Origin: a virus
UHGV virus genome: UHGV-0141727
Length of the DNA stretch: 64,000 nucleotides
Reading direction: 5' to 3' (one strand)
In this document: positions 1,299-53,256 of the stretch, piece after piece
Layout of the letters: every line of letters begins with the position of its first letter
Numbering within the stretch: position 1 is the stretch's first letter
The notes under the pieces: model-generated
Told to the model about the DNA's origin: nothing
Databases searched by the model: none
The model's input: the letters and a program-made list of their open reading frames with translations, nothing else
Made by a program: the position numbers and the translations under genes

Positions 1299-1496
1299 TC
1301 AAGTTACGATCCAATCATTACCGACTGCATCCGCCGTCGATAAATCGACTTCCCGGATCTGGTATCCATTAATACAAAACCATCCAGTGGTAGAGCTATT
1401 ATCAGGCCAGACCCATACACCAACACTCCATGCTTTACGGCGGCACACTTCAGCCTGTCCTTCCCTGATTTTTTTTACCGCCTGCATGATGTCCAT
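1299..1496 (-). CDS. DUF2829 / Tad2-like small protein
   Basis: ORF 1299..1511. Start MDIMQAV (ATG 1496) overlaps the upstream stop as TGATG. The pattern AVKKIREGxxVxRRxAW ... DLSTADAVGNDWIV matches the DUF2829 N- and C-terminal signatures as recalled. Paralogous to the C-terminus of 51286..52227. Confidence 0.55.
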   Translation of the reverse strand: MDIMQAVKKIREGQAEVCRRKAWSVGVWVWPDNSSTTGWFCINGYQIREVDLSTADAVGNDWIVT

Positions 1497-2203
1497 CACT
1501 CGCCTCCCCAACCGATTACCTGGAATTGCCCCATCCTTGGGTGATACCAGCGTTTTCCTCGGTGTTCAGCCTCCGACATCATCAGGGTAAAGGCATTCAT
1601 GAAGGGAGATAAGGCCACAATAGTACGACGCGACAATACCCCCTCTGGCGTCAAAAACTCATGCGTATCTGTGGGGATCCGGTAAGCGTTGACCAAGTTA
1701 CGGCATTTGGCTTCAGTCAGGCCGCATTTCGCCGCTAACTGGCGATAGCCAATGTAACCTTCCGGCATGTTGCCCTTCTTGATCTGCTCGACGGTTTCAG
1801 CGACCTGGCTAACCTTTGACTCAACAGCATGAAGCCGCTTTTGCTGCTGAACTGCATTCGCAGCCATTGCAGCGATCATCTCTATTTCGGTCAACGGCTG
1901 GCGTACTTGTTCTTCCAGTTCGCGCCAGCGGTCCACCAGCCGGGCGGTAAATTCGGGAGAAAGCTGCGCAACGACAATGATACTGTCACGCTTGCCTTGC
2001 TCGCCTTCGAAGAAATAGGCTTTTGTGTATTTATTAGGGCTAAGTGATTGATTATTCTCAACTGTAGCCAATGGCGTATGTTGGATAACTCCTTTAGCAA
2101 CAAGTCTTTCGATGCTGCGTTTAACATCAGAGTGACGACTTCCCACCAGTTCCGCGATCTCAATGCTGGTCATTGATGGCTTTTCGAGAATGCAGATATC
2201 CAT
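1496..2203 (-). CDS. Rha-family phage regulatory protein / antirepressor (immI-like module 1)
   Basis: N-terminal TSIEIAELVGSRHSDVxRSIERL (Phage_pRha-like). About 90% nt identity over several hundred bp to 51286..52227. Its ATG overlaps the icd-like stop (TGATG). Confidence 0.7.
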   Translation of the reverse strand: MDICILEKPSMTSIEIAELVGSRHSDVKRSIERLVAKGVIQHTPLATVENNQSLSPNKYTKAYFFEGEQGKRDSIIVVAQLSPEFTARLVDRWRELEEQVRQPLTEIEMIAAMAANAVQQQKRLHAVESKVSQVAETVEQIKKGNMPEGYIGYRQLAAKCGLTEAKCRNLVNAYRIPTDTHEFLTPEGVLSRRTIVALSPFMNAFTLMMSEAEHRGKRWYHPRMGQFQVIGWGGE

Positions 2204-2427
2204 CAGTGAGCCTCCGCAATGCCGGGATTGGTAATATTGCGATACCAGGGATTAGTGTTTGGTTGTGGGGAAGTAGAGAAACGACCAGTGAGAACGCCAT
2301 ACTGATCAGGGATCAGAGAACGGGCTTCTTTTTCAGTTGCGGCAATTGCGAAGTGATCACAATGTTTTTGCAGGGAGTGGAAACGCCAGATGAATTCTGG
2401 ACGTGAGCAAGGATTGGCATTAACCAT
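2203..2427 (-). CDS. icd: Icd-like (host cell division inhibitor-like) small protein
   Basis: C-terminal 74 codons of ORF 2203..2751. ATG 2427 is preceded by GAGG. EFIWRF...AATEKEARSL motif as in Icd-like proteins. Position upstream of, and coupled to, the antirepressor as in P1 icd-ant. Confidence 0.6.
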   Translation of the reverse strand: MVNANPCSRPEFIWRFHSLQKHCDHFAIAATEKEARSLIPDQYGVLTGRFSTSPQPNTNPWYRNITNPGIAEAH

Positions 2428-2483
2428 AGTTACGGCCTCATGTACAGGTTTAACAACCTGCAACCCGCTGCTAAACGGGTGGC

Positions 2484-2551
2484 AGGACGTGACGGGGTTA
2501 GCAGACTGGCGTACATGAAACCAGCAGGCCGAAGCCTCCCCATCACGCCCC
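2484..2551 (-). ncRNA. c4: c4-like antisense RNA (module 1)
   Basis: 68 nt with a 14-bp closing stem (GGGGCGUGAUGGGG / CCCCGUCACGUCCU). Contains an AGGC-UUCG-GCCU hairpin and a CUGG/CCAG hairpin with an 11-nt loop carrying CAUGUAC. Single-stranded CUGCUAA follows, and 3' GCCA. The loop and single-stranded boxes are complementary to boxes at 2642-2636/2628-2622 and 2474-2468/2445-2438. Confidence 0.6.
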
Positions 2552-2583
2552 ACCATAATTTGGGCGTAACGTGGTTTACGGAC

Positions 2584-2614
2584 ACAAAAATACCGCAATA
2601 TCGGATATCTGCGG
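2584..2614 (-). terminator. terminator-like hairpin between the a1/b1 boxes and the c4-like RNA
   Basis: Minus strand CCGCAGAUAU-CCG-AUAUUGCGG followed by UAUUUUUGUGU. An analogous element is present in module 2. Confidence 0.4.
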
Positions 2615-2742
2615 TTGTCCGCATGTACATTCAGGCTGCTAAACCCGGTCGCAGAATTTGCTACGACGGCATGAATATAAGCCTGAACATTAGAAAGATC
2701 AACAGAATTTTTATCAGATGCTGTTTTTTTGTGACGATGTAA

Positions 2743-2788
2743 ATCATACATTCCTGATTAGAAACATCAATTTAATTTTCTAACACAC
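2743..2788 (-). promoter_or_regulatory. promoter-operator of immI-like module 1
   Basis: Minus strand GTGTGTTAGAAAAT-taaaTTGATGTTTCTAATCA-ggaatg-TATGAT. The -35 is TTGATG (2770-2765), the -10 is TATGAT (2748-2743), spacer 16. The palindromic operator overlaps the -35. Confidence 0.6.
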
Positions 2789-2842
2789 AATTACGAGCGA
2801 TGATTTTTCCGCCGCACGGTTATTGTACAGTCAATCGCAACA

Positions 2843-3802
2843 TCATCCCCGAAAGCCCTCCGGAATTGACCAGTCTTCCCGGTCAAATTCAGACCGATAG
2901 CCACGCTGTTTCATCTGGTCAAATGCTTCATTGATGGTTGCACATCCCTGGGAACCAGAATAATCCATAGAGAAATCCAGGGCGCTGGATCGTTTGGGCT
3001 TATTCACCGTGGTAGCACTACGTATCCATGCAAATTTTTTTGCCAGTTTTTCAGCGGTACGATACAGAGCCTGCCGTTTTGCGTACCCCTCGTCTGAACG
3101 ACGCTTTGCAGCTCTCGCTTTTGCCGCCGCCAAACAGTGGTTGGTATGTTCTTCCCTGATTACTGTTTTTTTATCCAGCAAGCCATTATCCGCTTGAGAA
3201 CTATCTGCTGGTGAAGCCTTTGGCTGAACCGCGCATGATCTTTCTCTTCTTTTGGCTATAGAGTGACTCTTATTTTCTATTGGCTGTTCATTTTGAACAT
3301 GGGGGGACTTGTTCAATTTGAACAGGGGGTGCCCAGTTTCAAAAAAATAACGAACCTTTGAAATCAACTGCTTAACCAGTTTTGTGGCGTTGGCAAATTT
3401 GATGCCCTGCTTACTCCCTATCTCCATTGCTACATGAATGAAGTGGAGAAATTGTGTTGTAAACCGGTACACGTTACACACCTGAGCATTGTTATTCGCT
3501 ACCTGATGCTGCTTAACAAGCATTCCGCACTTCGTCGCTTCGGTAAATGCCCGGCGCACAGTAGAAATACTGCGTCCTGTAATCTCGGACATATCAGCAT
3601 ATGAGCGACGGATCATGTATTCATCGGTAGCTCCTGCCAGGTTGGCGAACTCGGCAATAATGGCGCTATGTGAAGGGGAAAGAAAACCGCTATGACGAGC
3701 AAAAAAACTCAACTGATGACCTTTGATTTTTTTGTGGTATTCAGTGTTGTTTTTATACTCAGAAGTGTTGAAAGTTACTGGAACTGAATTTAAAATACTC
3801 AT
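2843..3802 (-). CDS. winged-helix DNA-binding protein of unknown role (possible RepL-like initiator or regulator)
   Basis: 319 aa. HTH-like SYADMSEITGRSISTVRRAFTEATKCGMLV with a basic C-terminal half. Lies between two operator sites; own putative promoter with ATAGATTT direct repeats at 3810-3860. Confidence 0.4.
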   Translation of the reverse strand: MSILNSVPVTFNTSEYKNNTEYHKKIKGHQLSFFARHSGFLSPSHSAIIAEFANLAGATDEYMIRRSYADMSEITGRSISTVRRAFTEATKCGMLVKQHQVANNNAQVCNVYRFTTQFLHFIHVAMEIGSKQGIKFANATKLVKQLISKVRYFFETGHPLFKLNKSPHVQNEQPIENKSHSIAKRRERSCAVQPKASPADSSQADNGLLDKKTVIREEHTNHCLAAAKARAAKRRSDEGYAKRQALYRTAEKLAKKFAWIRSATTVNKPKRSSALDFSMDYSGSQGCATINEAFDQMKQRGYRSEFDREDWSIPEGFRG

Positions 3803-3863
3803 CAGATAGTTCCGTGAAAAATCTATCTACCGTATAAATCTATGCCAGTGGATTTATACACCC

Positions 3864-3896
3864 AAAAGCCGCTACTCAGCGGCTTTTGCTTTTTTG
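3864..3896. terminator. bidirectional rho-independent terminator
   Basis: AAAAGCCGCU-ACUC-AGCGGCUUUU hairpin. Tail is UUUUGCUUUUUU on plus and a U4 tail on minus. Confidence 0.55.
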
Positions 3897-3970
3897 GCAG
3901 TCGCTACCGGAGCAGTGACCGCGATCCTACTCGATCACGTGCCGTCGGATCAACAGTGTATAAAAACACA

Positions 3971-4004
3971 CTGTGTTAGAAAATTAAGCTAGCTTTTAGC
4001 TCAC
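3971..4004. promoter_or_regulatory. operator site (strong left half, degenerate right half)
   Basis: CTGTGTTAGAAAAT at 3971-3984 is identical to the left arm at 42127-42140. The right half CTTTTAGCTCAC matches the consensus at 7/12. Confidence 0.45.
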
Positions 4005-4999
4005 ATCCTCTTAGACACAAAGATCAGCGGAGTCACCGTCTTGTTCTCTTTCACCGGTATTTCTTGTTGTTTATTGGCTGATATTGGCAGACCATAAGTG
4101 GCATTAGCCCCTAGGGATTCAAGCATCGCTGCGACAATGCGTGCATCATCCTCTGACTGCATACGGCAGAGCGCCCGGCGCTGTTCTGCGCTGATAAAAA
4201 CAGGCATTTCCTGGATAGCATCACGCAAAATACGGCGGCATTTCTTCGCGTTCTCCCCCTGGCTTTCCATCATCGCGGCCTGGTCGCGTAGTTTGTCGCG
4301 AAGCTGCATATTTTCCACTTCAAGATGTATCAGTTCCGATTCCAGAGCTTCACGCTGTGCTGATTCAATCATTGCTTGTTGACTTTGCATTTGTGCAAAG
4401 TGATGAACAATATCTGTAGCCTGATTGTCAGTGAAACCTTGATCCATCAGCGACGTGTGCATAACAGCTTCACGCTCTTCAACGGACTCCATCATCGGTA
4501 TCTGTTTATCGAGGCTGATATAGTTCGGCACGGTAACGTAATCAAATCCATGAAAGGAGTTTACTATTGACACGAAAGAATCAGGTCCAATAGTCGCCCA
4601 TGACCAACCGCCAGCATTTGAGTTGATCAATCCTTGAACAATATGCCCTGTATATGAATCAAGAATTTCTTGGGTGTGCGTAATGACACCATTATCGTCA
4701 ATAGAAATATCAACTGTTCTGTTAGATGGCACATTTTCCAGAAGAAGAGGCTTACCATCCATCATAACAACGCAAACCTCTGGCAAATCTAGTGATTTAG
4801 TTTTGTTGTAATACATCGAGCGGCGACCATGACCGTAATATCCAAATAGCTCACCAAGAGCCATGCGCTCTTTAACTAGCGGTGATGTTATGGTTTTTCG
4901 CACAGCCTCAATAATGTATTTTCGGTTGTTCTGCGGTGTATGTTTGCGGATTTTCTCTACCAGGGAGAAGCGATCCGTAACGGTATTCAGTGATTGCAT
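4001..4999 (-). CDS. putative prohead protease/scaffold (P1 Pro position)
   Basis: 332 aa immediately downstream of the portal gene, with a C-terminal coiled-coil-like region (ELIHLEVENMQLRDKLRDQ). Call rests on position. Confidence 0.45.
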   Translation of the reverse strand: MQSLNTVTDRFSLVEKIRKHTPQNNRKYIIEAVRKTITSPLVKERMALGELFGYYGHGRRSMYYNKTKSLDLPEVCVVMMDGKPLLLENVPSNRTVDISIDDNGVITHTQEILDSYTGHIVQGLINSNAGGWSWATIGPDSFVSIVNSFHGFDYVTVPNYISLDKQIPMMESVEEREAVMHTSLMDQGFTDNQATDIVHHFAQMQSQQAMIESAQREALESELIHLEVENMQLRDKLRDQAAMMESQGENAKKCRRILRDAIQEMPVFISAEQRRALCRMQSEDDARIVAAMLESLGANATYGLPISANKQQEIPVKENKTVTPLIFVSKRM

Positions 5000-5012
5000 T
5001 ATTTCCCTCCGG

Positions 5013-6698
5013 TTAATTATTGCTCATCACAAATTTTGCAAAGTTGATTAATTGTTCTTGCGTCCAGTTTTCCGGATCGTCACCGGACGACAACGGCGCG
5101 GATTCGTACATACCATGCTCGTTGTTTTGCTCTGATTCATTCGCCTTAAACTCTTTGATCATTACGTTGAGAGTGTCATCGTCGATACGAAGCTGTTCGG
5201 TGAACAGATAGCGCATAAACGCGTCGCTACCCGCCAGTTTCGGGTTGTTCTGGATCTGGTCCATTATTTGCGAGATGACAGCTACGAAGTTGGCGCGCGC
5301 ATCCAGCTCTCGGTTTTCCTCTTCCTGGATAGCTGTGTTCATTGAGTTGAATTGCACGTCATAAGGACGGTTTTTTTCGGTGTAAACCTTCCCGTATTTA
5401 TAAGCGAGGTGAATGTCATGAAGCCGATAAATAGTCCGCTGGGCGGCCTGTCTGATCCAGTTCGCGCGTAATGCGGCCTGGATAGCTGTTTGCTGCCAAC
5501 CGCCTTCTCCAAGCCCCCCACTCATCTGATCAGCCCAGCCAAGCATTGTTGCGTCAATGCCGAGGCTTGCCGCGAGCTGTCGGAGATGAAACATAACGTC
5601 TTCGATACCACTGATATCTGCGGGTATAGATTGCGTATCAATGGTGATCCCGTTCTTCCCATCCCCCATGACAGGTATCAGATGGTTAAGTACAGATGGG
5701 AGAGCATTAGAATTAATTGACCGTTGCGCTACGAGGTCGCTATGGCGCTTCAGTGCCTGGCTGACCCCGCGCGTATAATTCGCCGCGTTTACCGGATCTA
5801 TCGTGTTCGTTGTGAGTGCAATCAGGCGATCAATTTTTGCAGCGTTGTTTCGCGTTGCTTTCAGCGCAGCAAGCGCGGCACATAAATTCAGGTAGGGTTC
5901 ATAACTGTATTCAAGAAACGACGTACCGTAGTTCTGTGTCTCCATTAACGGCTTGTCCTGCTGTTCACTAAGCAAGGAATAGCCTGTAGTGCCGTAAGTT
6001 ACTGGCATTACTTTATGCTGAGGCGTCCAGTACGGGTTTTTCATGGAAACCAGATTCCACGGCTCGGTTATAACTCTGCGCAAAGTATGCGTGTCCAGAA
6101 TGTAATCACCGCTGAATCCGACAAGTTGGCTACCGCGATAAAACTCCTGAACGAAATGAGGGAGCGTGTAATAGCTCGACTCAATTCCAGTTATCCCCTT
6201 CCCTTGCTCTGCATATGGACGGATATACGACACACCGAAAATAGCCATGATCATGGCCCACGATGGAAGGCCATCATTAATCATTGAGCTTAAATCAGCG
6301 GTCAATTCCTCACATCGACTTACAGCCTCCTTATCCGCCCCATTTTTCGGAGCGAGAATAAATGCGAGGCCTGTTTTTTTTGATGGAGCCAGAGAATGCG
6401 CAATGTGAATGTTTAATGCTGTGGAGATAGTCGGACTTTTCGCCATCGTCTCCAGTATGTTGTATTTTTGCAGGCGGTCACTCGGTAATTCTGCCGATAT
6501 AGATACTGTATCCGCCGCGCTTGTCATTCCATCGCTATTGCTCCCCAGGATGCCTGGACGCAAGGCGGACAGGCCAGAACGAGCAACGACGCTATGCCCG
6601 CTCGCAAATACGACCGGATCGGCAGGCGTAACATCACCACCGCTGAAGGCTTTCTTCAATGCCGACAGAAAGCCCTTGTTTTTGTCTTTCGTTGCCAT
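5013..6698 (-). CDS. portal protein (P1 Prt position)
   Basis: 561 aa. Size and position upstream of the protease-like gene, with an acidic C-terminus. Call by synteny only. Confidence 0.55.
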   Translation of the reverse strand: MATKDKNKGFLSALKKAFSGGDVTPADPVVFASGHSVVARSGLSALRPGILGSNSDGMTSAADTVSISAELPSDRLQKYNILETMAKSPTISTALNIHIAHSLAPSKKTGLAFILAPKNGADKEAVSRCEELTADLSSMINDGLPSWAMIMAIFGVSYIRPYAEQGKGITGIESSYYTLPHFVQEFYRGSQLVGFSGDYILDTHTLRRVITEPWNLVSMKNPYWTPQHKVMPVTYGTTGYSLLSEQQDKPLMETQNYGTSFLEYSYEPYLNLCAALAALKATRNNAAKIDRLIALTTNTIDPVNAANYTRGVSQALKRHSDLVAQRSINSNALPSVLNHLIPVMGDGKNGITIDTQSIPADISGIEDVMFHLRQLAASLGIDATMLGWADQMSGGLGEGGWQQTAIQAALRANWIRQAAQRTIYRLHDIHLAYKYGKVYTEKNRPYDVQFNSMNTAIQEEENRELDARANFVAVISQIMDQIQNNPKLAGSDAFMRYLFTEQLRIDDDTLNVMIKEFKANESEQNNEHGMYESAPLSSGDDPENWTQEQLINFAKFVMSNN

Positions 6699-6930
6699 GA
6701 TTCACCGCAAAAGGTTTCCGATTTCGTGGCAGCTTATCCAGTGTGTGATTTCATCAGTAATTTTTCGTTGTTTTCACTATATGCTGATGTTTTTTCATAT
6801 GCGGAAATGCTTTTCCAAAAACGCAACCGCCAAACAAAGAAGTTATGTTTATAAACATTTTTGTTGTGTTTTATATCTTTTGTGTTATTATTCTTGTCGC
6901 CCATGATGGATAAATTGCATAAGGAAACTT

Positions 6931-7113
6931 GTGAAGTATTCAGAGTTCAAACGCTGGTTAATCCAGCAAGGGGCAGAGTTCAGGAAAGCGCCAGGTGGCG
7001 GCAGTCATCAGAAAGTGAACCTGAACGGAAAGCGGTCGGTTTTCCCGGACCACGGTTCAAAGGAAATGCCTGAACCGCTACGCAAGAAAATAATGAAGGA
7101 CCTGGGGCTTTAA
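6931..7113 (+). CDS. hicA: HicA mRNA interferase toxin
   Basis: 60 aa, GTG start after AAGGA. MKYSEFKRWLIQQG...GSHQK...PLRKKIMKDLGL closely parallels E. coli HicA. Confidence 0.9.
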   Translation: MKYSEFKRWLIQQGAEFRKAPGGGSHQKVNLNGKRSVFPDHGSKEMPEPLRKKIMKDLGL

Positions 7114-7143
7114 GCCCCAGCCTTTTTCACTAGGAGCTTCTCT

Positions 7144-7575
7144 ATGTTTAACTATCCGGTAAAACTGGAGCGCGACGACAATACCGGCGCGTATGTCGTA
7201 TCATGCCGCGACCTACCATTGTTTAATTCCGTGGGTGACTCAGTTGAAGAAGCGTTGCTTGAGGCTGGTTATGGATTGGTCGCAGCGGTTGCGATTGAGA
7301 TTGAAGAACGCCGACCTGTTCCCACTGGTAGCGAGCCAAAAGAAGGTGAGTACGTTGTCTCTTTGCCAGTGCTACCAGCAATGAAGGCTGCACTCCACAA
7401 CGCGATGATAGAAACCGGCACACGCAAAGCAGAGTTGGCGCGCAAACTCGGAAAAAATGGAACACAGATTGATCGGCTTCTCGACGTCGAACATTCATCG
7501 AAAGTTGAAACTGTCGAGTTGGCACTGCATCAACTGAATAAAAATATCGCCGTATCTGTCACACCAATGCGGTGA
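7144..7575 (+). CDS. hicB: HicB antitoxin
   Basis: 143 aa. N-terminal YPVKLERDDNTGAYVVSCRDLP (HicB fold) plus a C-terminal HTH (TRKAELARKLGKNGTQIDRLL). Confidence 0.9.
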   Translation: MFNYPVKLERDDNTGAYVVSCRDLPLFNSVGDSVEEALLEAGYGLVAAVAIEIEERRPVPTGSEPKEGEYVVSLPVLPAMKAALHNAMIETGTRKAELARKLGKNGTQIDRLLDVEHSSKVETVELALHQLNKNIAVSVTPMR

Positions 7576-7687
7576 CTGCTCCCCGCCCTGGCTGGGCGAG
7601 GATTTACGGGGTATTTGTTAAAAACGCTCTATTCAAAGAAGAAATACCGAATCCCCCGGAGGTTATCCGGGGTGTCCGGTCGCCAGG

Positions 7688-9073
7688 TCAGGTTTCCAGC
7701 CCAAAATCGCTTTGTTCTGTTTTGGCTTCGAACATCGTGAAGTTAAGCCCTTTCCCCTCTCCATGTTCCAGTTCAATCTCATTAGAAACAGCGGTCAAAA
7801 TACTACGTAGATCGACATCTCCACCGCCGAACATATCGCCCAACGCCTGCTGTTTATGAATCAGTTCGTCGTTGATTTTTTGTGCCATTTTTTTGAATGC
7901 AGCCCCCATGCGCTTCGCGCTTCGATTATTTGCCACGATGAATAGCGCCAACGCCTCAGCTTCCGGCGTGCTATCACCGAAGAGTCCGCGCTGGGCTATC
8001 ACCTCTTCCACTGCCTGACCGTTGTCTTTGGCTTCACGAACAAGGTTAATCGCGTCCTGGAGTGCTGCTATAGCCTGTTTATCCAGACCGTTCACCTGCT
8101 CTATACCATCAACCAGACCAGTTACAGCATCATGATGTGCATCGCCAGAAATCGACTGCATTTGCGCAAAGTCACTGGCTGCTGTATTAAGCGCGGTCAG
8201 GATATTGCGCATTTCCGGATCCGGTTCTTCCGCCACAAGCCGAACAAGTCGCTCATCCTTATAGGCTTTGGCAAAAATCGCATTCTGAATGCGATCGATA
8301 AGCTGTTTCGTTGGACGTCCATCGGCTGTAAGCAAACCTGCCGTCGCGGTATCGCCTATTTCGTGCAAAAACGCACGAATAAACGCATCATTGGACCGCG
8401 CCAGTAGATTGCCATCATCTGAAGGATTAAATAGCGCCATGACGCTCTCAGTGAGAAATTGCGCATCCGCATACGCTTTCTCACTTGCAGCCATCTCTTG
8501 CAGATCGCTGATGTTTGAGTCGCGTGCAAATTGAGCACGATCAACGTCAGTGAGGCGCTCGCGAACCAGTACAGGCATCACCATTGCCCTGACGTCTTCG
8601 GGATTAAGGCCAAACTCTTTAGCGTGATCGATAAGATATTGTCGGTAATCTTCAGCCTGCCCTTGTTCATAAGCACGCCAGATTCCCATGCTTCGACCAT
8701 TACCAGACTCAACGACATTATCCGGACCAACAATCGGGGAACCATGACTACTCATACCCGAATCAGTGAGTTGTGCCGGGCGTAAATTGGCGGCGATACG
8801 GTTAACCTGGAGCTTACTTGACAGTCGGGTGCGATCGCGAGGCTGGAGTTCCTCCGGAAATGACGGATTTATACTTCCGTCCAGGTTGTTAGAAATGATG
8901 AGCTTTTTGGCATCAATAACCTTGAACGCTGTTTTAACTTCGTCGCCTTTGCTGGTGACGACATAGCTGCTACGCCCCAACTTCGTCTCTTGCTTTTCAA
9001 GAGATGACACCACAGCGATAACCCCCTCAATGTTCGCTGCGGCTAGAAGTGCTGATGTTACGTTTTGAGTCAC
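7688..9073 (-). CDS. DdrB-like protein with ParB/Srx-like domain (Dar antirestriction operon position)
   Basis: 461 aa. N-terminal region with the ELQPRDR motif of the ParB-like (DdrB-type) family. Last gene of the lydA..ddrB-like operon. Confidence 0.45.
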   Translation of the reverse strand: MTQNVTSALLAAANIEGVIAVVSSLEKQETKLGRSSYVVTSKGDEVKTAFKVIDAKKLIISNNLDGSINPSFPEELQPRDRTRLSSKLQVNRIAANLRPAQLTDSGMSSHGSPIVGPDNVVESGNGRSMGIWRAYEQGQAEDYRQYLIDHAKEFGLNPEDVRAMVMPVLVRERLTDVDRAQFARDSNISDLQEMAASEKAYADAQFLTESVMALFNPSDDGNLLARSNDAFIRAFLHEIGDTATAGLLTADGRPTKQLIDRIQNAIFAKAYKDERLVRLVAEEPDPEMRNILTALNTAASDFAQMQSISGDAHHDAVTGLVDGIEQVNGLDKQAIAALQDAINLVREAKDNGQAVEEVIAQRGLFGDSTPEAEALALFIVANNRSAKRMGAAFKKMAQKINDELIHKQQALGDMFGGGDVDLRSILTAVSNEIELEHGEGKGLNFTMFEAKTEQSDFGLET

Positions 9074-9164
9074 AATTAACCACCTTTCTGTAAAAAAGGC
9101 AGTGTAAAAAGTGTGTTATTTCGCTGACTATTTTAAGAAGAAAGGGGCATTCTGCCCCTCTCTT

Positions 9165-9536
9165 TTACGCTGCATACCCGTTAGCTGAAACCCAGTTTAC
9201 GGTCTGTTCTTTGGCCTGGTCGAGTGTCAAAAATTCACCAATATATTGAGATATGCCTCTCAAAGCATCGATGAACTCCATTTGTGATGATTTAGTAAAT
9301 GCACCACTAAGGAAGTCAACAACAATTTTAGGCGTTTCTTGTGCCGCCGGTTGCACTTCCTCTTCTTGCTGTTGCGCTGGATTATTCGATGAACCAAGCC
9401 CCAGCTTCATCATCACTTCAACTATCCGCACGCCAATAGTGACACGTTGTACCGCAGTCGCGCTTTTTTGCGCTGACATCAGCTCAGACAGTTCTTTGCC
9501 TAAGCTAAGGCGCTCCGTTACTGATATTTTCACCAC
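9165..9536 (-). CDS. DdrA-like small protein (by synteny)
   Basis: 123 aa, between the DarA-like and DdrB-like genes. No motif recognised. Confidence 0.3.
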   Translation of the reverse strand: MVKISVTERLSLGKELSELMSAQKSATAVQRVTIGVRIVEVMMKLGLGSSNNPAQQQEEEVQPAAQETPKIVVDFLSGAFTKSSQMEFIDALRGISQYIGEFLTLDQAKEQTVNWVSANGYAA

Positions 9537-13776: not shown

Positions 13777-16700
13777 TTAATACCCATAAGCAACATACTG
13801 TGCATATATTTTATCAGTGGAGCTACTTTTTACTGTAAAACCAGTGGCAGAGTTGTTGTATGTATAAAGAATTGCATTAACAGCATTCCCGCTATGAGGT
13901 GAAATCACAACTGCCGCACACGACTCAGGAAAAGAAGTCGGAAATTTAACTACGCTTCCTGGAGTAACAGCCGCTATAGTCCCCCACTGCATCATCACCT
14001 TAGTTGATGTATCCTTATGCCATCCATGAATGTTGGCATATGCAGTATTTTTAGCCTGATATTTCGTGTTGAAATTACTATAGTTACCAGGGGTAATCTG
14101 ACCAGCGGCAGATAAATTCCCCATAACCCTTACATGACCATCAGCACGTCCTAATTCTACGCGACCATCACCGCCATCTATCTTTAATGGAGTGTAAACG
14201 ACATCACCATTAACATTTTGCCCAGTGGTTGATATCTGGAAACTATATCCAGTATTAGTTATTAGGAATCCATAGTTATTATTATAAGTTAGGCGTATAG
14301 CATTTTGGCTGCTGGATATAATTTCACCGGTAACAGTACCACCTGTTGTTGGTAACGCACCAACATGACTTGCCGTTAATGTGATATCTGCAGAACCATC
14401 AAAAGCCACGCCACTTATTTTTCTGGCAGTTTTTAACTTTGTAGCTGTAGCTGCATTGCCACTTGTATTTTGATTCCCGGCAATATTAACGCCCGGAAGA
14501 TTGATGTTTGCTGAACCATCAAACGAAACCCCGCCTATTGTGCGTGCTGTTTGCAGTTTTGTGGCAGTTGCAGCATTGCCGGTAGTGCTCTGATTGCCTG
14601 TTTTATTCACGCCCGGCAGGTCGATGTTTGCGGTGCCATTAAATGAAACACCACCAATAGTTCTTGCCGTTTGTAATTTCGTTGCAGACGCCGCGTTTCC
14701 GGTTGTGTTCTGGTTGCCCGTGGTATTTACACCAGGGATGGAATCTTTCGATGTGTAGACCTGCGCCCACTCAGACCAACTAGCTGTATCAGTATCTCGT
14801 CGCGAACGTACATGTACAGGCGCATGAGCACCACTTGTACCGCTCCAACCTATGAACAACTCGCCTTCACCAGCGGCTGTTGCGCCCTTAAGATGAAGCA
14901 CATTCCCGTAAGCAGAAGGATAGCCGTTGTTGTACGCCTCATACATCTGCAATCCAGTGGTAGCACCTTGCGTTGTACTGGTGAGCGCAGTAACACGCCC
15001 TCTGGACGTAATTGTTGGTATCGAAATGTTCGCAGAACCATCAAACTTAACACCGTTGATTGTGCGGGCTGTTTGCAGTTTTGTAGCGGTTGCCGCATTA
15101 CCTGTTGTGTTCTGGTTACCGGCAATGTTCACACCCGGCAGGTTGATATTGGCGCTGCCATCAAATGCCACCCCGCCGATTGTGCGGGCCGTCTGAAGTT
15201 TCGTTGCGGTTGCCGCATTACCGGTTGTGCTCTGATTACCCGTTTTATTCACGCCAGGCAGGTCGATATTAGCACTGCCATCAAATGACACTCCACCGAT
15301 CGTTCGAGCTGTCTTGAGCTTTGTGGCAGTATCGGCGTTCCCGGTCAGCGTACCAGTAATCCCACCGCCAACTTTTACGCCGTTACCGATGGACACCAAC
15401 CCAGTTCTTAAGTTTATAGAAAATGGTCTTAATGGCCCGATGTCACCATTTTCACCCTCCCCTTCATTTGTCGGGATAAGATGAAGATATTCCTCGGATC
15501 TCCTGAAGATAAGGCCAAAGGCCTGGTTAAATATTCGAAGGGCATTTATTGTGCCAATTTTTAGCTGCCCCCCCATTGTGTCGCCAGAACGCTGAACGGC
15601 GTTACCAGCTTGAGAAGCAATATCCGTTAAGCCAAGATCTTCAGGGGTCAGAGTAATATCTGCCGAACCGTCAAATGCCACACCGTTAATCTTTCTGGCT
15701 GTTTTTAATTTCGTCGCAGTATCGGCGTTCCCGGTCAGCGTACCAGTGATCCCCGCGCTGAAAGTCTGGCGTGCACTCCATGTGTTAGCCGTGCTCAACA
15801 GGGGGATTTTTTCACCGCTGGTACCGAGTTCTCTTAAACCAAGGTATTGGATAACAGCCAGAGTGCTTGTTTTAGCCAGAATATCGCGACCGACTGACGT
15901 TAAATCAGTCTGGGCTACAGTGTCTGTTCCGGTAAAGTACGGTAATTTATTTGCCCCCGTCGCCAGGCCAGCGAGCGCGGTTAAGGTTGCGTCGAGAGGC
16001 TGCTTACCTGCAAGGGCATTTGTCATTGTAGTCGCAAAGTTCGGGTCATTGCCCAGTGCTGCGGCAAGCTCATTCAGGGTATCAAGAGCTTCTGGTGATG
16101 AGCCGACCAATGCAGAAATAGCGGCACGAACATAAGCGGTTGTTGCAATCTGAGTGTTGTTCGTACCTTGTGACGCCGTAGGAGCTGTTGGAACCCCCGT
16201 AAATGCCGGGCTTAATAACGGCGCTTTAAGAGCTAACGCATCATTAATCGTCTGGCTAAACTGGGGATCATTGTTTATTGCATCTGCAATTTTTTTCAGC
16301 GTATCCAACGCTGAAGGAGAACCATCAATAAGGGCGGTTATTGCGGCCTGAACAAAGGCAGTGTTTGCGATTTGTGTACTGTTTGTACCTTGTTCCGGAG
16401 TTGGAGATTTAGGTATACCAATAAACTCCGGGCTATCAACCGGAGCTTTTAGTTTGTTTAACGTGCTGATAGCAAGAGGTGTTGCGGCTTTATATTCTTC
16501 GTCACTATCCAAAGCACTGGAAAACTCAACACCAACAGCACGATTAGCACGATATTCAGTGCTAATCATATCTGCGGTAACGGCTTGAGCATTGTCAGGC
16601 ACGATCACGCGGCATAGCTCAATCTGGTTAGATGCTATTTCCTCATCAACGAGAGCAATAATTCTCGCTGCGCTAATATCCGATGAACTATCTACCTGGC

Positions 16701-34004: not shown

Positions 34005-34070
34005 GCATTAGAAAAATAATTTTCGTTAACAATCTTGTGTTAGTATGGTTTAATCTTAATTTTCTAACAT
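34005..34070. promoter_or_regulatory. double operator region between capsid gene and plus-strand operon
   Basis: GCATTAGAAAAAT at 34005-34017, plus the palindrome GTGTTAGTATGG-N10-ATTTTCTAACAT at 34037-34070. Confidence 0.55.
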
Positions 34071-42115: not shown

Positions 42116-42120
42116 ATTTC

Positions 42121-42163
42121 GTAAAACTGTGTTAGAAAATAAAACTCAATTATCTAACACAGT
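42121..42163 (-). promoter_or_regulatory. promoter-operator of the rdgC / C5-MTase / dam operon
   Basis: 38-bp palindrome ACTGTGTTAGAAAAT-N8-ATTATCTAACACAGT (1 mismatch). The -35 is TTGAGT at the centre and the -10-like element is TTTTAC at 42126-42121. ATG at 42115 has no SD. Confidence 0.65.
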
Positions 42164-42174
42164 TTTGTATTTTT

Positions 42175-43829: not shown

Positions 43830-43832
43830 GGC

Positions 43833-46080: not shown

Positions 46081-46082
46081 CA

Positions 46083-46104
46083 AAGCCCACCTTAAGGTGG
46101 GCTT
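46083..46104. terminator. hairpin terminator between convergent genes
   Basis: AAGCCCACC-UUAA-GGUGGGCUU. The U-rich tail is better on the minus strand (UUGUUAUUUU). Confidence 0.5.
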
Positions 46105-46305
46105 CGCCAGAAATTATTTTCTGGTATTCAGAACGCCATTACCGGACTTTGCCTTGACCAAGTATCACAACTGGTTTGACCTGTTATGATAGCTGGTTGC
46201 GGGATGTCTGAATTTCTTCAGTCTGCTGCATCCTCGAAGGTTTGGTTCAACATGTACCATTCCTTCACCGTCATAATAGTGTACTATTCACGTCCTTGCA
46301 AACAC

Positions 46306-47833: not shown

Positions 47834-47925
47834 AACAGTTCCTCACAGTCATAACCTGTGGGGAACTGTATGCAGGGTGTGAAATGCGGGAAAGCAGCGT
47901 CACCTGGCCTGGTGACGCTGTAAAA

Positions 47926-48850: not shown

Positions 48851-48870
48851 AGTTATTCAAAATCCTTTTT

Positions 48871-48923
48871 AATAAACTACATGTTATAAACTACAGGTTA
48901 TATCATATAACCTGTAGTTTATA
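48871..48923 (-). promoter_or_regulatory. TA operon operator: perfect 18-3-18 palindrome plus an extra half-site
   Basis: TATAAACTACAGGTTATA-TCA-TATAACCTGTAGTTTATA at 48885-48923. A third copy, ATAAACTACATGTTATA, lies at 48872-48888. Located 35 bp upstream of the toxin start. Confidence 0.7.
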
Positions 48924-48955
48924 TTTTCAAGGCCATTTTTTATTCGATTTAGCAT

Positions 48956-49609: not shown

Positions 49610-49634
49610 GGCTTTTACTCCACGATAGCAGGCA

Positions 49635-49660
49635 CAAAAAAAGGCCGCACATGGCGGCCT
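49635..49660 (-). terminator. rho-independent terminator (minus strand)
   Basis: AGGCCGC-CAUGU-GCGGCCU followed by U7 on the minus strand. Confidence 0.6.
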
Positions 49661-49874
49661 GCTTTGGCGTTATGACTCCCTACCGCGCATCGGCTGAAAG
49701 TTAGTCGTCAAAAGAACCTTCAACGGGAGCCGTTTGCGTAATGGATTTTGTCCAGATTGTGATTTCCAGAATAGTGTCAACAATTTTTTTGAATTTTTTA
49801 TTCGCTCTGAATTTGGCCTAGGTCATTTTGGCGTAGATGTTTGCTTTTGTAACATAAAGCTTCAGTTTGTTTAC

Positions 49875-50498
49875 ATGAAGGATGGTTTTGTGAAGTTAAG
49901 GGTTTTGGGAGCAGTGCTCGCGGTTATATTGGGGGGAGTTTCTCTTAATGCTGCCTATGCAGGCGCGTTACCTGCAAAGTATGAGGCTGGGCTGAAGGTG
50001 TTACGAAACGCCAAAACAAACTATACGCCTGATGAAGTTTCAAACTATTGCCAGAAAGAAAATATCCCACTGAAACCTGTAGAGCCATTCTTTAAAAGCA
50101 ACATAGAGTTCTGTGTATTTGCGTATGCAGCAGATGAAACAGGAAAGGCCATACAAAAGACAGGGTATTCCACCAAAGACACAATGTCAGTGTTAAGTAA
50201 CGGCGTGTTGCAGTTTGAGCTTTATCGTCAGCAAGGAATGGGAGATCTATTGCAGCCTTTGTATGGTCTAGCATTGGTGCCGGAAGGTCAGCAGTTTCTG
50301 ATCAAAAAAGGCCTCATGAGGCAGGAAGATGTAGCTGGTTTCGATGCCATCGTTGCCTATGAAAAACAACTCAAGGAACAGCGCAATAAAAAACCATCTG
50401 CCTCATGCGTGCAAAGCAAAACAGCAGAATACAGCGCAGTGGCTGGGCCTTTAGCCCCACAAATGGCAGAGCAATGGTGTAAACAATACGGGCAATAA
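49875..50498 (+). CDS. secreted (periplasmic) protein, unknown function
   Basis: ORF 49734..50498; start MKDGFVKLRVLG at 49875. Signal peptide ...VSLNAAYA|G. Confidence 0.55.
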   Translation: MKDGFVKLRVLGAVLAVILGGVSLNAAYAGALPAKYEAGLKVLRNAKTNYTPDEVSNYCQKENIPLKPVEPFFKSNIEFCVFAYAADETGKAIQKTGYSTKDTMSVLSNGVLQFELYRQQGMGDLLQPLYGLALVPEGQQFLIKKGLMRQEDVAGFDAIVAYEKQLKEQRNKKPSASCVQSKTAEYSAVAGPLAPQMAEQWCKQYGQ

Positions 50499-50518
50499 GT
50501 TACGCAGCGGAGGCAGAA

Positions 50519-50911
50519 TTGAAAAGATTAGCTATTGCTTTATTGGCAGCTTTCCCTTTGATCGCTCACGCCGGGAATTTACAAGTGAAGTGCGGTAGGT
50601 TTGATATAAAAATCTATCCGAACGCCATATTTCTGAATGGGAATAAGGTCGATAACGCGCACCGGAAAACTGAATCTGACGTAATGAGCTATGTGTTCCA
50701 GGAGTATGCCGAGATGGGGGGAACTTACACGTTGTACTCGCTGGATGTTCCATCTCGCGGTGATATGACGTTATCTCATCAATGGCAGAACGCCGATGGC
50801 GAAGCTCTGCGCGAGGTTAAAACAGAAAAATGTGGCACTTTCCATTCTTTTAAAGGGAAAGCGCCCAATGTTAAATCTACGCTTGAAAAACAGCGTGCTG
50901 GTGAGCTTTAA
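50519..50911 (+). CDS. secreted (periplasmic) protein, unknown function
   Basis: 130 aa, TTG start 6 nt after GGAGG. Signal peptide MKRLAIALLAAFPLIAHA|G; two Cys in the mature part. Confidence 0.55.
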   Translation: MKRLAIALLAAFPLIAHAGNLQVKCGRFDIKIYPNAIFLNGNKVDNAHRKTESDVMSYVFQEYAEMGGTYTLYSLDVPSRGDMTLSHQWQNADGEALREVKTEKCGTFHSFKGKAPNVKSTLEKQRAGEL

Positions 50912-51246
50912 ACCCCTTTAATCACGGAGATTTCGTTTCCCGCACGATAGCGGCGGGGAACGGAACTCTCCATCAGGTCACGAATTACTCCCGCTTCACG
51001 CAGTTCCTCTGTCTCCCAGTATCTGTTTGTCACCAGGTCAAGGCTGGCAATGACTTTATGCCGGTCATTCGGCATTGCTTCTTTTTCAGCCATTATCATC
51101 AGTGAGAACTCTTCATCCAGTAGAATTTGATACCAGACTTTTGACAGTTCCAACTCTCTAATGAGGGTGAAGCGCCGCTCAATTGTGGCAGCAGAATAAG
51201 TGAAATCTATTTTTTTGGTGGCATACATTTTGCTGTGTCCGGTCAC
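50908..51246 (-). CDS. hypothetical protein
   Basis: 112 aa. Its stop overlaps the convergent stop of 50519..50911. Confidence 0.45.
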   Translation of the reverse strand: MTGHSKMYATKKIDFTYSAATIERRFTLIRELELSKVWYQILLDEEFSLMIMAEKEAMPNDRHKVIASLDLVTNRYWETEELREAGVIRDLMESSVPRRYRAGNEISVIKGV

Positions 51247-51258
51247 TTAGTAGTTAAA

Positions 51259-51277
51259 GCCCCGGCATGACCGGGGC
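51259..51277 (-). terminator. hairpin after immI-like module 2 (weak U tail)
   Basis: GCCCCGG-UCAUG-CCGGGGC. The stem is related to the module 1 terminator at 1272-1290. Confidence 0.35.
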
Positions 51278-51285
51278 AAAAGCTA

Positions 51286-52227
51286 TTAACTAATAATCCA
51301 GTCGGTTGCTGCTACATCTTCTGGCTGCAAATCAATCGCACAGATCTTACCGTCGCGAATGGTGCGCCAGTTTTTCCGTGAGCCTCTTTCGGGCCATACC
51401 CAGACACTTTCAGGCCAGGATGCTCGACGGCATACGGTTGCATACCCTGTTTTAATCTTCTCTCTGGCGGTATGCAACGACAGGTTTGCCTTTGGACTTT
51501 CAGGCACAGGATGGTGAATGGCCTGAAATAGCCCCATCTTGGGATGATACCAGCGTTTGTTACGTGGTTCTGCCTCCGACATAACCTGCTTAAAGGCTTT
51601 CCGGAAGGGGGCCAGGGCCACAATGGAACGTCGCGCAAGCAAACCGTCGGGAGTTAAAAACTCATGCGTATCAGTGGGTATCCGGTAAGCGTTGACCAGG
51701 TTACGGCATTTGGCTTCAGTCAGGCCACATTTCGCCGCCAACTGGCGGTAGCCAATGTAGCCTTCCGGAATATTGCCTTTCTTGATCTGCTCGACGGTTT
51801 CAGCGACTTTGGACACTTGTGCCGATACTTCGGCTACCTGGGCATTAACGGCGTTGATCCGGCGTTCATGCTCAAGATGCATTTGCGCCATTTCAGCCAG
51901 AATTTCGGCTTTTGATTTTAACTGTGCCCGGGCATTCTCCAGTTCGCGCCAGCGGTCCACCAGCCGGGCGGTGAATTCGGGAGAGAGCTGCGCGACGACA
52001 ATAATGCTGTCTCGTTTGCCTTGCTCGCCTTCAAAGACATAGACCGGATCTTTGACAACCTTCCCTAAGTTATTGATTCTTTCGACGAACTCATTTTGAG
52101 TTTCTCGGATGACACCGCTCGCCATCATATTGCGAATGGTACGTAAAACGTTGCCATGACGACTACCAACTAACTCTGCAATATCCAGGCTATTCATTGT
52201 AGCTTTTTGGGTGATAGACAGATTCAT
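51286..52227 (-). CDS. Rha-family antirepressor fused to C-terminal DUF2829/Tad2-like domain (immI-like module 2)
   Basis: 313 aa. N-terminus NSLDIAELVGSRHGNVLRTIRNM. The middle is about 90% identical to 1496..2203. C-terminus REKIKTGYATVCRRASW...DLQPEDVAATDWIIS parallels ORF 1299..1496. Confidence 0.7.
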   Translation of the reverse strand: MNLSITQKATMNSLDIAELVGSRHGNVLRTIRNMMASGVIRETQNEFVERINNLGKVVKDPVYVFEGEQGKRDSIIVVAQLSPEFTARLVDRWRELENARAQLKSKAEILAEMAQMHLEHERRINAVNAQVAEVSAQVSKVAETVEQIKKGNIPEGYIGYRQLAAKCGLTEAKCRNLVNAYRIPTDTHEFLTPDGLLARRSIVALAPFRKAFKQVMSEAEPRNKRWYHPKMGLFQAIHHPVPESPKANLSLHTAREKIKTGYATVCRRASWPESVWVWPERGSRKNWRTIRDGKICAIDLQPEDVAATDWIIS

Positions 52228-52442
52228 CAGTGCACCTCCACGCAGTTCATTGGTAGATTCCAGTAATTGAGGATCTCCATCGCATCAAGAGTGAAGCGTG
52301 CGGCAAAAATGCAGGGTTCTTCGGGAAGGTATGAGCGCGCCTCTGCTTCGGTAGCAGCCATTACGCAGATATAGAGGTGTTTTTGGCAGGAATAGAAACG
52401 CCAGATAAATTCAGAATGAGTTGGGGTAGGGATAGTAGCCAT
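52227..52442 (-). CDS. icd: Icd-like small protein
   Basis: 71 aa. EFIWRFYS...AATEAEARSYL. AAGGAGG SD. Stop overlaps the antirepressor ATG (TGATG). Confidence 0.65.
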   Translation of the reverse strand: MATIPTPTHSEFIWRFYSCQKHLYICVMAATEAEARSYLPEEPCIFAARFTLDAMEILNYWNLPMNCVEVH

Positions 52443-52502
52443 ATTGGCAGCCTCCTTTGACTAAGTTAAGGAGCTACCGCGTGAGGTTCCAATCTCAATG
52501 GC

Positions 52503-52578
52503 GGTAGCACTGACTGGGTTGGAACTACCGGCGTCAAAGGGAACCGGCCTGCCTTTCGGCAGCCCAGCCAGCACTACC
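52503..52578 (-). ncRNA. c4: c4-like antisense RNA (module 2)
   Basis: 76 nt with a 16-bp closing stem (GGUAGUGCUGGCUGGG / CCCAGUCAGUGCUACC). Contains a GCC-GAAA-GGC hairpin and a 5-bp hairpin with a 12-nt loop carrying CCUUUGAC. Single-stranded GUUCCAA follows, and 3' GCCA. Complementary boxes lie at 52681-52675/52664-52657 and 52492-52486/52461-52454. Confidence 0.65.
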
Positions 52579-52626
52579 ATTGATCTCTGAGCTAAACGCT
52601 ACGTATGGCTGTGCGATGGCATGACA

Positions 52627-52650
52627 CAAAAAAAGACGCTTTCGGCGTCT
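52627..52650 (-). terminator. rho-independent terminator between the a1/b1 boxes and the c4-like RNA
   Basis: Minus strand AGACGC-CGAAA-GCGUCU followed by U7. Confidence 0.7.
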
Positions 52651-52755
52651 GTGTCGCCTTTGACATTATCCGGGGTTCCAATCCCGGCACCCGTTTTTCT
52701 AAGGTGCCGTAGAAATATACCCCACGATAATGCCAGGGCGCAACTGTGTGTTTTC

Positions 52756-52923
52756 TTATGCTTTTCTTTTCTTCTTTTGGGCTTGCTTGCAAGCGTAGGC
52801 CATTGCTTTAGCTTTCACTTCATCCAGCTTCCCGGTGATCACTTCTTTTCCAAGAGTGACAAACCAATCATAGCAACCGCCAGTGATGTTCTGGATTTGA
52901 AAGTTGAGGTAGCGAACGGTCAT
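52756..52923 (-). CDS. small hypothetical protein (55 aa), not in the ORF track
   Basis: ATG 52923 after GGGGGTG. Sequence MTVRYLNFQIQNITGGCYDWFVTLGKEVITGKLDEVKAKAMAYACKQAQKKKRKA. An upstream 29-codon ORF (53009-52920) ends in an ATGA overlap. Confidence 0.35.
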   Translation of the reverse strand: MTVRYLNFQIQNITGGCYDWFVTLGKEVITGKLDEVKAKAMAYACKQAQKKKRKA

Positions 52924-53208
52924 TTTGACACCCCCAGCGCGAGTAAAGAATGCAGATTATCGCGTGAGTGGCGGACAACGAGTGATGGGAAAAGACAGTA
53001 GCTGTTCATAGTGTAGTGACTCCTTGCTTTTGGAGCCGCCATCGACTGTTCCACGGTCTGGTGGCGGCGCAATAAAGGTTGGAACACCGTGAGTCAACGG
53101 GGGCTTTTCAGCCACCTATATTGCACCGCCATTGGTATGGCGGCGGCAATCATACGAAAAACCAAACGGTTTGTCTCAAAAAGTTGACCGGTGTACCAAT
53201 CGGTTGTG

Positions 53209-53256
53209 AATGTACAACGGTGAATTTCACAATTCAACTTAAAATGTTAGAAAACT
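53209..53256 (-). promoter_or_regulatory. promoter of immI-like module 2 with upstream operator half-site
   Basis: Minus strand GTTTTCTAACAT (53255-53244), then 6 nt, then TTGAAT (53237-53232), N17, TACATT (53214-53209). The spacer contains the palindrome GTGAAATTCAC. Confidence 0.5.

Follow-up and report, generated by a model that had tools for sequence, protein, structure and literature searches.

The 64,000-nucleotide (nt) viral sequence UHGV-0141727, referred to here over its whole length as the window, contains on its minus strand two similarly arranged regions, each of which combines a C4-type antisense RNA, an icd-like gene and a gene for an antirepressor. The question raised by this arrangement is whether one genome carries two separate copies of the immI anti-immunity operon known from phages P1 and P7, each controlled by an antisense RNA of its own specificity. 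The analysis presented here indicates that this is very probably the case. The window appears to contain two anti-immunity operons that are of the immI type of P1 and old paralogs of each other, with separate C4 locks, on a D6-like phage-plasmid related to P1. The anatomy of the operons, the complementarity and covariation of their antisense boxes and the purifying selection on their genes were all observed directly.

Antisense boxes of the two modules and their covariation

A first-pass annotation of the window had described two modules with the same layout. This description holds: module 1 (1272-2785) and module 2 (51259-53261) are co-linear and both lie on the minus strand. In each module the C4-type RNA carries two short antisense boxes, a' and b', and exact reverse complements of these boxes occur once upstream (a1 and b1) and once downstream (a2 and b2) of it. 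The boxes quoted in the annotation, CUGCUAA (a') and CAUGUAC (b') in module 1 and GUUCCAA (a') and CCUUUGAC (b') in module 2, proved to be exact and to be unrelated between the modules. Perfect pairing extends over 7-8 nt with the cognate targets, as opposed to 3-5 nt across modules, and no targets of either module were found within the other. Judged by their sequences, the antisense boxes of the two modules are orthogonal.

It is apparent that the boxes of module 1 and module 2 differ more from each other than do those of P1 and P7, in which the differences between the c4 RNAs are confined to the a and b boxes. The scaffold and the a' box (CUGCUAA) of the module 1 RNA, c4-1, are identical to those of P7 c4, and its b' box, CAUGUAC, differs from the corresponding boxes of P1 (CACUAAC) and P7 (CACAAUC).

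A comparative set of 160 related loci was assembled from IMG/VR, with both antirepressors as queries; the loci compared for covariation were D6-like, P1-like and prophage loci. At least eight combinations of a and b alleles were found in the module 1 family (P1, P7 and D6 being among its members) and at least 11 in the module 2 family. For every allele, a1 and a2 are the same sequence and equal the reverse complement of a', and b1 and b2 likewise equal the reverse complement of b', while the scaffold barely changes. In the module 1 family, the antisense box and its downstream target (x'-x2) were paired in 100% of 210 cells, and the upstream site and the antisense box (x1-x') in 100% of 182. 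Eight of 14 pairs had changed on both sides and none on one side only; slid controls were paired in 26-52%. The corresponding values for the module 2 family were 100% and 99.5% of cells, with nine of 15 pairs changed on both sides and 24-51% pairing in the slid controls. This three-site covariation among relatives indicates that the boxes are selected specificity determinants in both module families. On the evidence of these alignments, the boxes are diversifying specificity determinants of the kind that underlies P1/P7 heteroimmunity.

The alleles of the window are not those of Escherichia phage D6, in which the boxes are CUGUCAA/CGUAAGU in module 1 and GUCUCAA/CCUUUUGC in module 2. The possibility that the b' allele of module 1 is unique to the window was rejected, as an identical c4-1 core (CUGCUAA, CAUGUAC) was found in six IMG/VR contigs (L167-L172), in which the antirepressor is of the P1 Ant type. 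The presence of the c4-1 core of the window beside P1 Ant-like genes indicates that lock alleles move between payload types and between families. Two of these six contigs carry two Ant-like genes within approximately 6 kb.

Organization of module 1

All features described for module 1 are on the minus strand. The module begins with an operator-like 17-mer, TGTTAGAAAATTAAATT (2769-2785), recognized by motif enrichment, which overlaps the -35 element of a site (2743-2770) identified as promoter-like in a promoter scan; the position of this pair parallels that of Op51/P51a in P1. A second promoter-like site found in the same scan, TTGATC-17-TATATT (2674-2702), aligns with P51b of P1/P7. The leader (2582-2680) contains the putative decoy boxes a1 (2636-2642) and b1 (2622-2628), followed by a hairpin and U-run at 2582-2615. 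Its segment 2628-2680 matches the Rfam family c4-a1b1 (RF03163) with 53.9 bits, against a gathering score of 46.7.

The c4-1 antisense RNA (2475-2560), with b' at 2511-2517 and a' at 2498-2504, matches the Rfam C4 family RF01695 with 71.7 bits against a gathering score of 45. Its downstream targets (2436-2474) comprise a2 (2468-2474) and b2 (2439-2445), and b2 abuts the Shine-Dalgarno sequence, GAGG, of icd1. This Icd-like open reading frame (ORF; 2203-2427, 74 amino acids) matches NF033153 with 40 bits against a cut-off of 25, and its product is 61% identical to P1 Icd. Its stop codon overlaps the start codon of ant1 (TGATG, 2201-2205), which encodes a Rha-type antirepressor of 235 amino acids (1496-2203; Pfam PF09669, phrog_63). 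A further overlap (TGATG, 1494-1498) joins ant1 to ORF65 (1299-1496), a small protein gene assigned to phrog_7385 and, through a weak match to PF11195, to the Tad2-like (DUF2829) proteins. The module ends in a canonical intrinsic terminator (1272-1290), found in a terminator scan, with a GCCCCGG stem followed by T6.

Organization of module 2 and a third C4-like RNA

The features of module 2 are likewise on the minus strand, with the exception of the operator-like 17-mer TGTTAGAAAACTAATTT (53245-53261), found on the plus strand in the motif scan. The promoter scan placed a promoter-like site at 53149-53177, directly upstream of c4-3 (53057-53136), a third C4-like RNA with a' UGUUCCA (53080-53086) and b' UGACUC (53091-53096). 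With 42.3 bits, the match of c4-3 to RF01695 falls short of the gathering score of 45; its positional counterparts in D6 and in three relatives score approximately 40 bits. The RNA folds into the C4 shape with a z-score of -5.3. Over 23 distinct sequences it is near-invariant between variable flanks, and its boxes, unlike those of c4-1 and c4-2, share this invariance. Its putative targets lie in the adjoining region (52756-53053), where a3 occupies 53047-53053 and b3 (53017-53022) overlaps the Shine-Dalgarno sequence, AAGGAG, of a 29-amino-acid ORF (52920-53009) that is coupled through ATGA to a conserved ORF of 55 amino acids (52756-52923; phrog_7786). The label 'ash family protein' is applied to an ORF in module 2 of relatives by the Prokaryotic Genome Annotation Pipeline; no ORF of the window in 52621-53087 matches such a family in Pfam or NCBIfam.

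The leader that follows (52629-52707) is an IsrK-type RNA with a1 at 52675-52681, b1 at 52657-52664 and an intrinsic terminator at 52634-52650 followed by U7. It matches isrK (RF01394) with 62.7 bits against a gathering score of 50, and a sub-threshold match to c4-a1b1 overlaps this one. An IsrK-type leader with a terminator is found in module 2 only, the leader of module 1 being of the c4-a1b1 type. The c4-2 antisense RNA (52497-52584) has b' at 52533-52540 and a' at 52519-52525, and matches RF01695 with 77.1 bits against the same gathering score of 45. Within its downstream target region (52443-52492) are a2 (52486-52492) and b2 (52454-52461), the latter overlapping the Shine-Dalgarno sequence, AGGAGG, of icd2. 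This Icd-like ORF (52227-52442, 71 amino acids; NF033153, 49.4 bits against a cut-off of 25) overlaps with its stop codon the start of ant2 (TGATG, 52225-52229). The Rha-type antirepressor encoded by ant2 has 313 amino acids (51286-52227; PF09669, phrog_63), the last of which form a fused C-terminal Tad2-like domain (51286-51483). A GCCCCGG hairpin 3' of ant2 (51259-51277), followed only by UUU, represents a weak terminator that was not called in the terminator scan.

Antirepressors, selection and the Tad2-like tail

Both antirepressors exceed the cut-off of the Pfam family Phage_pRha (PF09669) and also match phrog_63, 'anti-repressor Ant'. No match to P1 Ant1 was found within the window in a tblastn search. 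The two antirepressors of the window, designated Ant1 and Ant2 after their genes, are 63% identical over 237 amino acids and near-identical in their C-terminal 90 residues, and ORF65 shares 38% identity with the 65 C-terminal residues of Ant2. These identities indicate that the modules are co-linear paralogs, the last domain being a separate protein in module 1 and fused to the antirepressor in module 2. In both operons, adjoining genes are joined throughout by overlapping stop and start codons (TGATG).

All ORFs of both modules are intact in the window. Ratios of non-synonymous to synonymous substitution rates (dN/dS), calculated for the window against orthologs, were 0-0.07 for icd1, 0-0.13 for icd2, 0.3-0.6 for ORF65 and 0.11 for ant2 (the last against D6). 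Taken together, the dN/dS ratios and the covariation of the boxes indicate that both locks and both payloads are under selection. On these sequence criteria, both modules look functional.

The N-termini of the antirepressors are mosaic, as shown by the replacement of the 5' part of ant2. In several relatives (L009, L014, L010, L011 and related loci) the first approximately 190 nt, which encode the N-terminal winged-helix part, have been replaced. Some ant2 alleles have an ant1-like 5' part (80-82% identity, compared with 72-73% in others).

The DUF2829 domain named in the first-pass annotation is weakly supported; the Tad2 proteins of this family are anti-defence sponges that act against Thoeris, whose signal is gcADPR. 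ORF65 does match PF11195, with E = 0.007-0.02 and 16.7 bits, which is below the cut-off of 25. The Tad2-like profile PF11195 matches 10 of 13 ORF65 orthologs and paralogs over its full length, with E values of 0.007 or worse. For an AlphaFold2 model of ORF65 with a predicted local distance difference test score of 77, the top 11 fold matches in the PDB were all Tad2, although weak (E 0.2-0.8, template modelling score approximately 0.5). PDB sequence searches with ORF65 and with an ORF65 profile returned no Tad2, and a search for homologs of ORF65 returned only three close proteins, which bear no Pfam labels. Assignment of ORF65 and the tail of Ant2 to Tad2/DUF2829 is plausible but tentative.

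Operator-like motifs and the repressor

The operator-like sequences at the head of both modules belong to a larger set. The 17-mer TGTTAGAAAAYTAAWTT occurs in the window in 11 copies with no more than three mismatches, compared with 0.75 expected by chance, a 15-fold enrichment. All copies are intergenic, at 2769-2785, 3974-3990, 34006-34069, 42130-42159, 53245-53261, 53876-53905 and 58928-58957, and at three of these loci they form overlapping inverted pairs like the bivalent C1 operators of P1. Copies also precede repL and ref, two genes that are under C1 control in P1. Searches of the window revealed no copy of the P1 operator consensus, ATTGCTCTAATAAATTT, and, by tblastn, no match to P1 C1 or Coi; synteny with pEC361_3 places the repressor gene approximately 16 kb past the end of the window. 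From its copy number and placement, the TGTTAGAAAAYTAAWTT set probably represents the C1-type operators of a D6-like phage.

Relatives of the window and prior knowledge of the two-module layout

Nucleotide similarity and synteny with Escherichia phage D6 (MF356679) identify the window as part of a D6-like, P1-related phage-plasmid. D6 matches the first region with 91.2% identity over 2.8 kb and the second with 91.4% over 2.8 kb; in the phage record search, no record other than D6 covered the regions named in the first-pass annotation. The window and D6 have the same neighbouring genes, namely hydrolase, repL and pro in one case and a pmgF-like gene and ref in the other. In the D6 record, one set adjoins repL and comprises orf19 ('inhibition of cell division'), orf18 ('putative anti-repressor') and orf17; the other adjoins ref and comprises orf83 ('inhibition of cell division') and orf82 ('putative anti-repressor').

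In PLSDB, at a coverage of at least 80%, module 1 was found in 110 plasmids and module 2 in 92. Nearly all of these are non-mobilizable plasmids of approximately 90 kb from Escherichia coli or Salmonella, and the highest identities to the window are 94-97%, which makes the window a new but ordinary D6-like member. A second place matching ant was present in 55 of the top 60 PLSDB plasmids bearing module 1, and each of the six D6-like contigs from IMG/VR that are at least 76 kb long and for which both modules were retrieved carries the two. From D6, PLSDB and IMG/VR it is evident that two modules, rather than one, are usual among related phage-plasmids, with roughly 100 such plasmids in PLSDB. 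One plasmid, pCUVET16-559.2 (NZ_CP150992.1; L173, locus 5501-9380), has two deletions, corresponding to 52494-52674 (c4-2) and 51035-52323 of the window. The second removes the 3' part of icd2 and all of ant2; ref, c4-3 and module 1 are kept. The lock and the payload have been lost together in this plasmid.

A second c4-icd region in a D6-like plasmid was noted in 2019 (PMC6799933), and a second ant module has been described in RCS47-like P1 plasmids, with the same insertion in pTZ20_1P and RCS47 (PMC6906374). The two-module layout is the norm of the D6 family and is already annotated, and it does not constitute a new kind of system. No description of the orthogonality and hypervariability of both locks, of c4-3 or of the Tad2-like tail was found in a literature search that did not extend to the D6 genome paper (Gilcrease and Casjens 2018). 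These features are incremental additions.

Comparison with known systems

The resemblance to immI of P1 and P7 extends to most parts of the operons: a C4 RNA, which in module 1 has the scaffold of P7 c4; paired a1/b1 and a2/b2 sites, with b2 on the Shine-Dalgarno sequence of icd; an Icd homolog (approximately 61% identity), its gene coupled to that of the antirepressor by overlapping stop and start codons; two promoters in tandem, the upstream one associated with a repressor operator (here an operator-like motif); and a and b boxes that set specificity, as in heteroimmunity. In contrast to P1 and P7, the antirepressor of the window is of the Rha type and is followed by a Tad2-like domain, the operator consensus differs, repL lies upstream rather than downstream, the b' box CAUGUAC is new to both, and there are two operons per genome.

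Module 2 also resembles the IsrK-orf45-AnrP locus of the prophage Gifsy-1 (PMC4825925), in which IsrK activates anrP translation in trans. Common to the two are a leader of the isrK family with a terminator, a1/b1 sites in that leader and a small ORF translationally coupled to a Rha-type antirepressor. Unlike the Gifsy-1 locus, that of the window is on a plasmid prophage and is preceded by c4-3, and the published Gifsy-1 model includes no C4 RNA.

The closest counterparts are D6 (MF356679; orf17-19 and orf82-83) and D6-like plasmids such as pYU39_89, which have the same two modules, in the same order and with the same flanking genes, at approximately 91% nucleotide identity. D6 differs from the window in its box alleles, and its record has no RNA feature annotation. 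RCS47-like P1 plasmids (PMC6906374) resemble the window in carrying, besides a canonical immI, a second module between pacB and c1, whose IsrK/C4/icd region is 95% identical to that of module 2 and has the same b' box. Its payload, however, is a P1 Ant1-like protein of 371 amino acids, its a' box differs, and no c4-3 unit was detected in it.

Direct repeat and age of the duplication

The two antirepressor genes include a direct repeat, one copy of which lies inside ant1 (1519-2018) and the other inside ant2 (51522-52042). Over this whole alignable length the copies are 76% identical, their longest uninterrupted match being 35 nt. The figure of approximately 90% given in the first-pass annotation for 1650-2000 versus 51655-52030 was too high, the measured identity being 75.2%. 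Conservation is uneven, with segments of 93.4% (1653-1804) and 91.4% (1914-2018) identity on either side of an island of 48.9% (1805-1913).

Comparison over a 286-nt block gave 80-85% identity between the two paralogs of the same genome, in each of 12 genomes, and 88-98% between orthologs; a 105-nt block (block B) gave mixed paralog and ortholog identities. The greater similarity of orthologs than of paralogs indicates that the duplication predates the D6-like radiation and that there has been no concerted evolution. In the 286-nt block, orthologs were closer than paralogs in 11 of 11 genomes, and continuing gene conversion between the two copies was therefore rejected for this block.

The same annotation had proposed the repeats as substrates for deletion or for resolution of the plasmid into two circles. 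No hybrid ant junction was found among 72,556 PLSDB plasmids. A 10.7-kb metagenome contig (IMGVR_UViG_3300013958_000038; L012, locus 1-5768) joins 4702→1519 of the window to 52100→48956 inside the repeat. Its order, with the module 1 upstream flank and 5' ant1 followed by 3' ant2 and the module 2 downstream flank, is exactly that of the predicted junction, which could be either a rare event or an assembly chimera. The proposal was not upheld, given that the repeats are old, diverged paralogs with no hybrid in PLSDB, and that the single contig with the predicted junction is possibly a chimera.

Proposed mechanism and alternative explanations

In P1 and P7, C4 blocks translation of icd, and expression of ant depends on that translation. 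In P1, loss of c4 alone derepresses ant, and the antirepressor inactivates C1 in c4 mutants. By analogy with these phages and with IsrK of Gifsy-1, each operon of the window would be transcribed from a promoter flanked by a C1-type operator. The transcript would contain, in order, an a1/b1 leader with a terminator hairpin, the C4-type RNA, a2/b2 on the icd ribosome-binding site, icd, the coupled Rha-type antirepressor gene and the Tad2-like end. The C4 RNA would be cut from this same transcript, and its a' and b' loops would pair with a2 and b2 to block icd translation. Through coupling and polarity, synthesis of the antirepressor would also be blocked, leaving the prophage quiescent. A role as decoy or titrator of C4 may fall to the a1/b1 leader; that of module 2 is a small RNA of the IsrK type with a terminator. 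The third C4-like unit upstream in module 2 would control the two small ORFs that follow it. The analogy thus suggests, rather than demonstrates, repression, C4 processing, the target of the antirepressors and the independence of the two locks in vivo.

Since the boxes of the two modules are unrelated, each C4 should control only its own icd-ant operon and those of incoming relatives with the same allele, which it would silence. It follows that each module would act as a separate immunity barcode or trigger. A redundant, dual-key switch had been suggested for the pair in the first-pass annotation. Were either antirepressor able to inactivate C1 by itself, the two locks would instead constitute an OR gate with two independent triggers, which differs from redundancy; this reading is favoured here by analogy, because loss of c4 alone is sufficient to derepress ant in P1.

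Several observations weigh against an interpretation as two immI-type operons. The antirepressors are of the Rha type and not P1 Ant1/Ant2, and c1 is outside the window. The operator-like 17-mer of module 2 is in the opposite orientation, approximately 70 bp upstream of the best promoter-like site, and the terminator hairpin 3' of ant2 is weak. The a box of c4-3 matches the a-targets of c4-2 over 7 nt in the window, so that the locks inside module 2 are not fully insulated. Finally, the absence of c4-2 and ant2 from pCUVET16-559.2 indicates that module 2 is dispensable for carriage of the plasmid.

Among the alternatives, it is possible, though on balance unlikely, that only module 1 is a true immI and that module 2 is a cassette of the IsrK-orf45-AnrP type for stress-responsive or cross-prophage control, its leader being an IsrK-like trans activator (anti-antisense) and Ant2 acting on other repressors or prophages. 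This would account for the membership of the module 2 leader in the isrK family (62.7 bits) with a terminator of its own, and for the occurrence in RCS47 of a 95% identical RNA region driving a different, P1-Ant-type antirepressor. The Gifsy-1 experiments show that IsrK can activate in trans, and Ant1 is unlike Ant2 in its N-terminal winged-helix part, the N-terminus of Ant2 being mosaic among relatives. Against it, module 2 has a full C4 RNA and, as in P1, a2/b2 on the icd ribosome-binding site; both modules start with the same operator-like motif; and the 63% identity of Ant1 and Ant2, with near-identity over the C-terminal 90 residues, suggests a common target.

It is improbable that the pair is chiefly structural, with the ant1/ant2 direct repeats serving to mediate deletion or resolution into two circles. 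A repeat of 76% overall identity, with no exact run beyond 35 nt, a 286-nt block in which orthologs always resemble each other more than paralogs do, and a hybrid junction in none of the 72,556 PLSDB plasmids all argue otherwise, as does the prediction that either circle would lack essentials, the structural genes falling on one and c1 and plasmid maintenance on the other. The junction inside the repeat of L012 is as such a structural role would predict, but L012 is a 10.7-kb metagenome contig and a possible assembly chimera; the ant1-like 5' parts of some ant2 alleles (80-82% versus 72-73%) and the mixed identities of block B point in the same direction as the junction. Least probable, and indeed very unlikely, is that one of the duplicated modules is in decay, dead in its transcription or its function and kept only through linkage. 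The deletion of c4-2 and ant2 in at least one natural plasmid and the weak terminator 3' of ant2 would fit such decay, as would the lack of an ant2 coding sequence in the PLSDB gene tables of many RefSeq records, tables that omit pseudogenes and are also incomplete. Decay is difficult to reconcile with window ORFs that are all intact, with dN/dS values of 0-0.13 for icd2 and 0.11 for ant2, with c4-2 boxes and four targets that co-vary over at least 11 allele combinations, and with paralogs that predate the D6-like radiation and have both persisted.

A wider view, which goes beyond two separately locked immI-type operons and is offered as a speculation that is unlikely to hold, is that the two orthogonal C4 locks (three with c4-3) form a combinatorial, fast-diversifying immunity barcode across D6-like and P1-like plasmids and Gifsy-like prophages. 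The locks would exclude relatives with the same allele and would sense superinfection through the incoming a1/b1 (IsrK-type) decoy, leading to induction, and derepression would be linked, by way of the payload, to an anti-Thoeris function of the Tad2-like kind. Hints in this direction are that the alleles are combinatorial, that the module 1 allele recurs in P1-Ant-type elements and that the module 2 RNA region recurs in RCS47.

Other features of the window

A strong Rfam match to the sroH RNA (RF00372; 113 bits against a gathering score of 80) was observed at 46082-46267 on the minus strand. Internal diverged direct repeats were observed at 14390-15758, with units of 91-300 nt and 60-79% identity, and between 55254-55944 and both 57232-57271 and 60978-61171, with 76-93% identity.

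Significance

The window represents one more D6-like element, with an allele pair in which module 1 contributes the P7-type a' box and CAUGUAC, and module 2 contributes GUUCCAA/CCUUUGAC. Small leads are provided by c4-3, the conserved third RNA of the C4 type, and by the Tad2-like antirepressor tail, and the known paradigm is left unaltered. The wider value of the finding is comparative: both C4 locks are hypervariable, with three-site compensation, and their alleles are common to different phage-plasmid families. Locks that are hypervariable, compensated and found across families make the heteroimmunity networks of phage-plasmids predictable from sequence.

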